Origin: Escherichia coli
GTDB lineage: Bacteria; Pseudomonadota; Gammaproteobacteria; Enterobacterales; Enterobacteriaceae
DNA: 64,000 nt
NCBI RefSeq assembly: GCF_003334815.1
Contig: NZ_QOWO01000005.1
Direction: 5' to 3' (one strand)
Positions 33,953 through 34,621 of the stretch are shown piece after piece. A program made the position numbers and the translations under genes. Every line of letters starts with the position of its first letter. Position 1 is the first letter of the stretch. The notes under the pieces are model-generated. The model worked only from the letters and a program-made list of their open reading frames with translations. It was not told where the DNA came from and did no database searches.

Positions 33953-34621
33953 TTAATACTCTGAAGGCAAACGGTTGATAGCGACCAGTTTGCCTTTATT
34001 CATTTCGATATAGCCGCCTTTACGCAAAGCAGCGAGAACTTCTGCGACGACAGAACGCGATATGCGTGTACGTTGATGGATATAATTCATCACACCAATA
34101 CGTGATCGCAATTCTTCATTCCAGTCAATCATTGATAATAATGTTGCGCGGATTTGTTCGTAGGAATTATGCCCAATGAGCTGCACGTCGCGTAATTCCA
34201 GAATTCTATTTTGCCAGGCTAACCAGTAAAAAGCGTCTCGCCAGAGTTGATTTTGTTCAATAAGCGTAATGGTTTGTTTGGCTGGTAGATGATATCCCGT
34301 ACAATTTCCTTCTGATATTAATTTGTATGGTATATCGTTTTTCATTAAACCATCAGCCAGCCCCATAATATAAGGAGCCTGGGTAATACCGATAAGTACG
34401 TTTTCTTCTCTACGCAGAGAGATAACTCCCTCTAAAATAACGAAAGTATCTTCGTTATTGACATCACTGGAAAATATAACTTGCTTTTCATTATTAAACT
34501 CGAAGCGCGTACCGTATCTGGACAAACATTTATCGAGCTTACCAAATTCCTGAAGAGGTTTAACTACAGATAACATTTGCGCGTCCTTTGCAGTAATGCC
34601 CGTCAAATCCTTGACGGGCAT
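33953..34621 (-). CDS. yaiV: Putative CRP/FNR-family transcriptional regulator YaiV
   Basis: 222-aa ORF; C-terminal HTH-like segment RISRSVVAEVLAALRKGGYIE; position matches yaiV. Confidence 0.65.
   Translation of the reverse strand: MPVKDLTGITAKDAQMLSVVKPLQEFGKLDKCLSRYGTRFEFNNEKQVIFSSDVNNEDTFVILEGVISLRREENVLIGITQAPYIMGLADGLMKNDIPYKLISEGNCTGYHLPAKQTITLIEQNQLWRDAFYWLAWQNRILELRDVQLIGHNSYEQIRATLLSMIDWNEELRSRIGVMNYIHQRTRISRSVVAEVLAALRKGGYIEMNKGKLVAINRLPSEY

Follow-up and report, generated by a model that had tools for sequence, protein, structure and literature searches.

What does the long inverted repeat between the autotransporter adhesin gene ehaB (yaiT) and iprA, the current name of yaiV, do in Escherichia coli, and does it act as DNA or as RNA? 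The repeat lies in a 64,000-nucleotide stretch of E. coli DNA (contig NZ_QOWO01000005.1 of assembly GCF_003334815.1), hereafter the window. The iprA product is a regulator about which little is understood and which reduces resistance to hydrogen peroxide in Salmonella, E. coli and Enterobacter. The original prediction for this DNA described a perfect palindrome with 11-bp arms at positions 34596–34621, placed the yaiV start codon inside one arm, and proposed that the repeat either hides this codon in the mRNA or serves as an operator. Here we report that the repeat is selected as an RNA helix of the iprA-sense transcript and lies outside the iprA coding sequence. We favor, with a probability of about 0.5, a role as a cis-acting stem-loop between ehaB and iprA that works as a leaky terminator or attenuator and as an insulator.

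An RNA helix at the ehaB–iprA junction

The predicted repeat is present on the minus strand, where positions 34621 to 34596 read ATGCCCGTCAA-ggat-TTGACGGGCAT, and it extends to a perfect 13 + 4 + 13 structure with arms TAATGCCCGTCAA and TTGACGGGCATTA, which we term stem-loop 2 (SL2; coordinates of all features are given in Table 1). The minus-strand sequence around it is aatctaaaTAATGCCCGTCAAggatTTGACGGGCATTActgcaaaggacgcgcaaATG. The distance of 42 nt from the yaiT stop codon (TAA, 34666–34664) to the palindrome had been given correctly. First-order Markov simulations yielded a chance count of 0.025 per window for perfect repeats with arms of at least 13 bp and loops of 3–10 nt, and perfect arms of at least 10 bp were found at only four loci in the whole window, the lac operator region among them. 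Folding of the RNA, which had been proposed as a check, gave a stable hairpin with a ΔG of −20.4 kcal/mol, compared to −5.5 ± 2.1 for shuffled sequences (z = −7.25). With its stable, GC-cored stem of 11–13 bp, SL2 has the stem expected of an intrinsic terminator.

The element is unannotated, yet of a conventional kind, a cis-acting leader or intercistronic stem-loop that challenges no current concept. None of the E. coli RefSeq records listed in a 38-nt search of 5,426 genomes carries an annotated feature over the palindrome, an Rfam scan of positions 33500–35500 at E ≤ 10 returned only noise, including microRNA models that match any hairpin, so that SL2 is without an Rfam family, and the literature retrieved by full-text searches on yaiV, iprA and ehaB does not describe the hairpin. 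A repetitive element of the repetitive extragenic palindromic (REP), bacterial interspersed mosaic element (BIME) or enterobacterial repetitive intergenic consensus (ERIC) type was ruled out, as there is one locus per genome, no second match in the window and no Rfam family; the median of two places per E. coli genome in the search represents the same SL2 site matched on both strands.

Conservation within E. coli, another of the proposed checks, turned out to be nearly complete. The 311-bp ehaB–iprA junction was found in 5388 of 5426 complete genomes, and of 5390 E. coli records, 5375 carry the single-copy 38-nt palindrome segment at 100% identity. To follow the element beyond the species, we compared the iprA loci of 22 GTDB species genomes, 14 further assemblies and 21 metagenome stretches, the latter retrieved with a pattern whose anchors, the autotransporter stop and the Shine-Dalgarno (SD) block, lie outside the hairpin. 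All loci examined have the autotransporter gene followed by iprA, a synteny also reported in PMC13248724, i.e. iprA is always linked to the gene of an EhaB/SeaB adhesin. A hairpin of the same size occurs in Escherichia, Salmonella, Citrobacter, Raoultella, Yokenella, Trabulsiella and several metagenomic lineages, and in every lineage that has it the distance from the hairpin to the iprA ATG is 17–22 nt; the spacer upstream of SL2 diverges freely between lineages.

Among 26 distinct sequences the stem positions are paired in 96.9% of cells and two-sided changes occur at 5 of the 10 pairs, values that none of 500 shuffles reached; when the partner was slid by 1–3 columns as a control, pairing was 28–43%. 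Compensatory changes comprise G-C to A-U (C. rodentium, Yokenella), U-A to C-G (Yokenella), U-A to A-U (C. gillenii and lineage L047), A-U to U-A at the loop end, and C-G to U-A in lineage L053, the last falling within the GCCC block of the stem, which is otherwise invariant there and, together with its GGGC partner, nearly invariant in sequence overall. The variants retrieved with the outside-anchored pattern keep pairing as well. Mismatches are confined to the loop-closing pair, with one more at the second pair from the stem base, and the loop itself varies (GGAU, GAAA, GGAC, GGAG, GAAU, GCAU, GACU, GCAA and AUAU). All five internal one-sided changes produce U·G pairs on the iprA-sense strand and C·A mismatches on the other strand, the chance of each preserving RNA pairing on one strand being about 0.25; L010 and L021 are natural cases in which such G·U changes keep the RNA paired while the DNA dyad is broken. 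Because the compensatory pairs are accompanied by these strand-specific G·U changes, we conclude that SL2 is under selection as an RNA helix of the iprA-sense transcript and not as a protein half-site. A hairpin or terminator acting on the antisense strand is disfavored, as the sense G·U changes would be A·C mismatches there. SL2 is thus a good case of a hairpin with real covariation, although its value is local, and the natural compensatory variants provide ready-made mutational designs.

A covariance model built from the alignment identified a single site each in the window and in K-12, and found no match in Enterobacter-type loci. In the latter (L023, L024, L038 and L040, with IprA about 51–54% identical) the GCCCGTCAA hairpin is absent and a canonical GC hairpin with a T-run follows the autotransporter stop, an alternative junction architecture that leaves a spacer of about 55 nt before iprA in L038 and L040. 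Genomes of the C. farmeri / C. amalonaticus type (L035, L036, L051 and L060) contain a second, paralogous module of autotransporter, hairpin and iprA-like gene, located beside a LacI-family gene in place of ampH and encoding an IprA of 60% identity. The hairpin is kept in this module, with ATG changed to TTG, CAA for CAT in compensation, and a U5 tail; its retention in the paralogous copy indicates that autotransporter, hairpin and iprA travel as a unit.

Start codon, promoter and leader of iprA

The ATG in the 5′ arm of SL2, taken as the yaiV start in the original prediction, opens an open reading frame (ORF) of 222 codons that is in frame with iprA in E. coli, the annotated start being its codon 16, 45 nt downstream. 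RefSeq assigns iprA 624 nt and 207 amino acids (aa) in O157:H7, CFT073 and WP8, and the same start of a 207-aa protein is used in K-12 MG1655 (b0375, 394506–395129, NP_414909.2). The NCBIfam equivalog NF008810, of 207 positions, aligned with residues 16–222 of the long ORF and 1–207 of the short one, and of the 120 best homologues listed from the database nearly all measure 207–208 aa, long forms such as P0038 (222 aa) and P0086 (223 aa) being rare. The duplex with the anti-SD sequence amounts to −5.3 kcal/mol at the downstream ATG vs −2.8 kcal/mol at the upstream one, which has no SD, and the block TGCAAGGA around the iprA SD is kept across genera. In all Salmonella, six Citrobacter lineages, the C. 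farmeri paralogue and Yokenella, the upstream triplet does not share the iprA frame; in E. albertii (TAG), Raoultella, C. gillenii and Citrobacter Res13 an in-frame stop comes after it; and its place is taken by AAG in C. gillenii (with CAT changed to CTT), CAG in L047 and TTG in the C. farmeri paralogue, with compensation in the opposite arm. Given the RefSeq and K-12 annotation, the family model, the homologue lengths, the SD and the frame analysis, iprA starts at the ATG at 34576, 45 nt downstream of the stem ATG, and the 222-aa model is an annotation artefact.

The SD and AUG of this start are located 5 and 17 nt past the stem and are predicted to be mostly unpaired (P of about 0.5–0.66). 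Occlusion of the start would place the functional SD or start codon within the stem; both are outside and largely unpaired, and therefore the hairpin does not sequester the initiation region. A model in which the stem hides the start, and translation of a 222-aa protein is gated by hairpin melting, could appeal to the in-frame ORF that opens at the stem ATG in E. coli, to the few long database entries, and to the likeness with start-occluding hairpins such as RNA thermometers or the MS2-type initiation hairpin, where an AUG is likewise buried in a strong stem. In contrast to those systems, the buried AUG of SL2 is not functional: it lacks an SD and has a predicted probability of being unpaired of only about 0.01, its N-terminal extension falls outside NF008810, in Salmonella, most Citrobacter, E. 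albertii, Raoultella and Yokenella its frame is lost or runs into a stop, and the codon itself is exchanged while the pairing is restored, so that this model is effectively refuted. The original prediction was to fall if the true start was a downstream Met, for example codon 16, with the palindrome not conserved; the start is indeed codon 16, and the palindrome is conserved.

The position of the promoter defines which transcripts contain SL2. In E. coli K-12, yaiV has an FNR chromatin immunoprecipitation (ChIP) peak with a predicted site, GTGACGTAGATCAA, 'within yaiU', as well as an anaerobically induced sigma70 ChIP-seq peak (82 to 509), and with hns stpA as the background, an fnr mutation brings its expression to 0.19-fold (Myers et al. 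2013, PMC3688515). Of the 10 consensus positions, the FNR site retains 8–9 in Escherichia, Salmonella and most Citrobacter; in Enterobacter and C. sedlakii it has degenerated. It is embedded in the ehaB codons for GDVDQ; the promoter is within coding sequence and transcription would start at the stop codon. In S. Typhimurium 4/74, differential RNA sequencing placed the yaiV transcription start site (TSS) at 427584 (Srikumar et al. 2015, PMC4643027), and the supplement of that study lists yaiU at 424651–427587 and yaiV at 427673–428296; the TSS thus coincides with the last G of the TGG that is the final codon in seaB/ehaB, which gives a leader of 89 nt. If the equivalent E. coli position, 34667, is the start, SL2 extends from about +45 to +74.

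A second promoter in the spacer, TTCACT-18-TTTAAT, was predicted by genomic systematic evolution of ligands by exponential enrichment (SELEX; Shimada et al. 2014, PMC3946193); its −10 element is not conserved in Salmonella or E. fergusonii. The sigma70 ChIP peak is centered at about 34624, which cannot discriminate between the two promoters because the FNR peak at this locus is similarly displaced by about 50 bp from its own motif. A search of E. coli Cappable-seq and SMRT-Cappable-seq data gave no ends at the ehaB–iprA locus. A promoter within or after the hairpin, with TTGACG as −35 element, was ruled out by inspection, as neither E. coli nor Salmonella has a suitably spaced −10. Since the gap of 17–19 nt between SL2 and the ATG has no room for a promoter, the iprA promoter is upstream of SL2 and every iprA mRNA carries SL2 in its leader.

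The leader contains a further stem-loop, SL1, the arms of which covary (TTTCTC/GAGAAA in Salmonella and E. fergusonii, TTCCC/GGGAA in C. amalonaticus), although its stem is weak (mean z −1.6). A predicted CyuR motif, GAAGAAATACTGGTAATTTAATC, was listed for yaiV, which is up 4.5 log2 on cysteine (PMC11408624, Table 1). With the Salmonella-type TSS, this motif would extend from +18 to +40, placing it in the transcribed leader and not upstream of the promoter. The resulting leader map, with a putative TSS at the ehaB stop, a class II FNR site inside ehaB, SL1, SL2 and the SD, constitutes a testable cis-regulatory scheme that bears on how the expression of adhesin and regulator is separated or coupled.

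Proposed leaky termination and its alternatives

In the scheme that we favor, transcription would enter iprA either by read-through from ehaB or from the FNR-activated, H-NS-silenced sigma70 promoter starting at the ehaB stop, and SL2 would halt part of it, strongly where the stem is followed by a tail of 5–6 U residues and weakly in E. coli and Salmonella. SL2 would thereby insulate iprA from ehaB as well as from its own promoter, and the mRNA that reads through would retain a stable hairpin 5 nt before an accessible SD. We infer termination, and any effect on mRNA stability, from the anatomy of the element, its U-tracts in relatives and the canonical terminators of lineages that lack it, which together make a leaky terminator or attenuator the preferred reading. 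SL2 consists of an A-rich 5′ flank, a GC-cored stem of 11–13 bp, a tetraloop and a U-rich 3′ flank, and at least 5 U are found within 8 nt past the GC core in 10 of 23 lineages. Strong tracts are seen in Yokenella (UUUUUAU), L047 and L053 (UUUUUUG), the C. farmeri paralogue (UUUUUG), C. gillenii (UUUUAU) and the C. freundii group (AUUUAUUG); the tract is weak in Salmonella (AUUAUUG) and weakest in E. coli (AUUACUG). The L047 hairpin was flagged as a terminator by a generic scan, and in lineages without SL2 (Enterobacter cloacae, Enterobacter cancerogenus, L023 and L024) a canonical hairpin with a T-run is located between the same two genes. SL2 resembles in these respects the intrinsic terminators that act as leaky attenuators, such as the rplL–rpoB attenuator and rpsU–dnaG T1, which likewise combine a GC-rich stem with A-rich 5′ and U-rich 3′ flanks and which stand between co-directional genes, with transcription of the distal gene passing through. 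It differs from them in its poor U-tract in E. coli and Salmonella, the lack of an antiterminator pairing and an SD only 5 nt away. The earlier suggestion that the palindrome could couple yaiV to yaiT read-through is reasonable insofar as a selected sense-RNA element does occupy the junction.

Several observations weigh against termination. The E. coli tail, AUUACUGC, has 3 U in 8 nt, below the 5 U applied above, and termination in E. coli may be negligible. The generic promoter and terminator scan of this region of the window flagged neither the palindrome nor a promoter; the same scan also misses the hairpin in the Citrobacter, Yokenella and L053 loci, L047 being the only relative flagged among those scanned, as the scan uses the maximal stem, in which the first U residues of the tail pair with the upstream A-tract and are thus absorbed. 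A d'Aubenton-Carafa-style score of −14.6 was obtained for E. coli SL2 with a crude implementation that also scored rrnB T1 and lambda tR2 negative, and was consequently dropped as a decision rule. In L053, SL2 is preceded by a canonical terminator, and therefore SL2 is not simply the terminator of the autotransporter gene. The part of an E. coli Term-seq supplement that was covered lists no 3′ end here, in K-12, where yaiT is disrupted and silent. The stem sequence in Escherichia, Salmonella and Citrobacter is far more conserved than pairing requires, which leaves room for sequence-specific recognition by a protein, and the E. coli TSS is a putative one, carried over from Salmonella by alignment.

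The main rival to a leaky terminator is a purely post-transcriptional role, in which SL2 would be a non-terminating leader hairpin that obstructs RNase E scanning or 5′-end-dependent decay, acts as a spacer that adjusts how ribosomes reach the nearby SD, or blocks 3′ exonucleases on the ehaB mRNA. We consider this possible but doubtful. It would account for the spacing of 17–22 nt held in all lineages, for the free SD and AUG, for the weak U-tract in E. coli and Salmonella and for the coexistence of SL2 with a separate terminator in L053, and if transcription started at the spacer promoter predicted by SELEX, the stem would lie 0–2 nt from the 5′ end, as in ompA-type stabilizers. Such 5′ stabilizing stem-loops are reportedly the subject of work by Emory, Bouvet and Belasco from 1992. 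Like ompA hp1, SL2 is a constitutive leader hairpin of high stability that does not cover the SD; unlike hp1, which is within 2–4 nt of the 5′ end, it would be internal by the mapped Salmonella TSS, with SL1 as the 5′-proximal structure, and the strong tract of 5–6 U right after the stem in several lineages would be needless for a pure stability element. An operator for a dimeric factor, with IprA itself (HTH_46, CRP-like fold) as the candidate roadblock or autorepressor past the promoter, appears unlikely. Such a site would explain a perfect dyad in the transcribed region just past the promoter and next to the gene of a DNA-binding regulator (PF15977), as for lacO1, as well as the nearly invariant GCCC/GGGC block. 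In contrast to lacO1-type operators, SL2 shows covariation that preserves RNA pairing with strand-specific G·U changes, with all five internal asymmetric changes keeping the RNA paired on one strand; its contiguous pairing of 10–13 bp per arm exceeds the need of a half-site, and in Yokenella, Trabulsiella, C. rodentium and L053 the inner half-sites have been exchanged entirely, with compensating changes. The proposed likeness to CRP/FNR half-sites does not hold, as GTCAA-N4-TTGAC is reversed relative to TTGAT-N4-ATCAA and TGTGA-N6-TCACA, and the published FNR site is a different sequence inside ehaB, 88 nt upstream. Across the 64-kb window, half-site matches are about as frequent as chance predicts (23 observed vs 21.8 expected), and neither this search nor the covariance model found a second SL2 site, in keeping with the single copy per E. 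coli genome.

Recognition by CsrA is less probable still. A dimer bridging the loop GGA (CAAGGAUUUG) and the GGA of the SD about 22 nt downstream would repress iprA translation. The CsrA SELEX consensus is RUACARGGAUGU, which the SL2 loop context resembles; E. coli, Salmonella and most Citrobacter have GGA both in the loop and at the SD, with a distance between the two sites that is typical, and the mismatched closing pair in several lineages would enlarge the loop around GGA. Conservation of the stem is not matched by that of the loop GGA: seven lineages keep the stem without it (E. fergusonii GAAA, C. braakii ATCC GCAU, the C. farmeri paralogue GAAU, Yokenella GACU, Trabulsiella GCAA, L047 and L053), and the portion covered of a supplement of E. 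coli CsrA crosslinking-immunoprecipitation and ribosome-profiling data has no yaiV/iprA entry. Both the operator and the CsrA reading are thus disfavored by the covariation pattern and the variability of the loop. We also regard as improbable that SL2 terminates a leader RNA of about 75–80 nt, which would begin at the ehaB stop codon and consist of SL1, the conserved, single-stranded AU-rich stretch AAGGUAAUUUAAUC, SL2 and a U-rich tail, the usual anatomy of an Hfq/ProQ-type small RNA (sRNA). If this were so, the iprA leader would be an attenuator that releases a trans-acting sRNA under FNR/anaerobic control, and iprA read-through would be set by a factor recognizing the stem, whose sequence is unusually conserved.

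Feature coordinates and other repeats of the window

Table 1. Features of the ehaB–iprA region, in coordinates of the window
Feature	Positions	Strand	Remarks
iprA (yaiV) coding sequence	33953..34576	-	207 aa; start ATG 34576-34574; by RefSeq, NF008810 and homologue lengths
iprA Shine-Dalgarno AAGGA	34584..34588	-	5 nt after SL2, 7 nt before AUG
SL2	34594..34623	-	Perfect 13+4+13 inverted repeat; iprA leader / ehaB 3′ region
Upstream ATG in SL2 5′ arm	34619..34621	-	Not the iprA start codon
Predicted CyuR motif	34628..34650	-	Overlaps SL1 right arm and the moderately conserved GGTAATTTAAT block between SL1 and SL2
Predicted alternative sigma70 promoter	34629..34658	-	Would start transcription at SL2 base
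SL1 stem-loop TTCTTC-actcc-GAAGAA	34645..34661	-	2 nt after ehaB stop; 5′-proximal if TSS = 34667
ehaB / yaiT autotransporter adhesin gene	34664..37570	-	Intact, 968 aa; stop 40 nt upstream of SL2, 42 nt upstream of stem ATG
TSS-equivalent position	34667	-	Putative, transferred from Salmonella by alignment; E. coli leader would be 91 nt
Predicted FNR site	34703..34716	-	ehaB 3′ coding end; centered at -42.5 relative to 34667 (class II geometry)

The ehaB gene is intact in this strain; in K-12 MG1655, ehaB/yaiT is a pseudogene split by IS3B (L026, 1252–5419), and K-12 expression data for the upstream gene are therefore not transferable. On the other side of iprA, ampH (plus strand, ending at 33952) and iprA are convergent with zero intergenic bases between them, and the only terminator-like site flagged for ampH, at 33973–33986 on the plus strand (GGTTGATAGCGACC with a T-rich tail), is inside the iprA coding sequence. 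The only other perfect inverted repeat with 13-bp arms in the window is the lac operator O1 region at 59934–59968, TGTGTGAAATTGTGAGCGGATAACAATTTCACACA; the K-12 lac O1 presumably reads TGTGTGGAATTG, and this strain may carry a G-to-A change that makes the outer arms perfectly symmetric. Perfect repeats with 11-bp arms are found at 8114–8141 (AACCACGGGGC-atcgca-GCCCCGTGGTT) and 60168–60195 (TTTCCGGCACC-agaagc-GGTGCCGGAAA), both of which resemble terminator hairpins.

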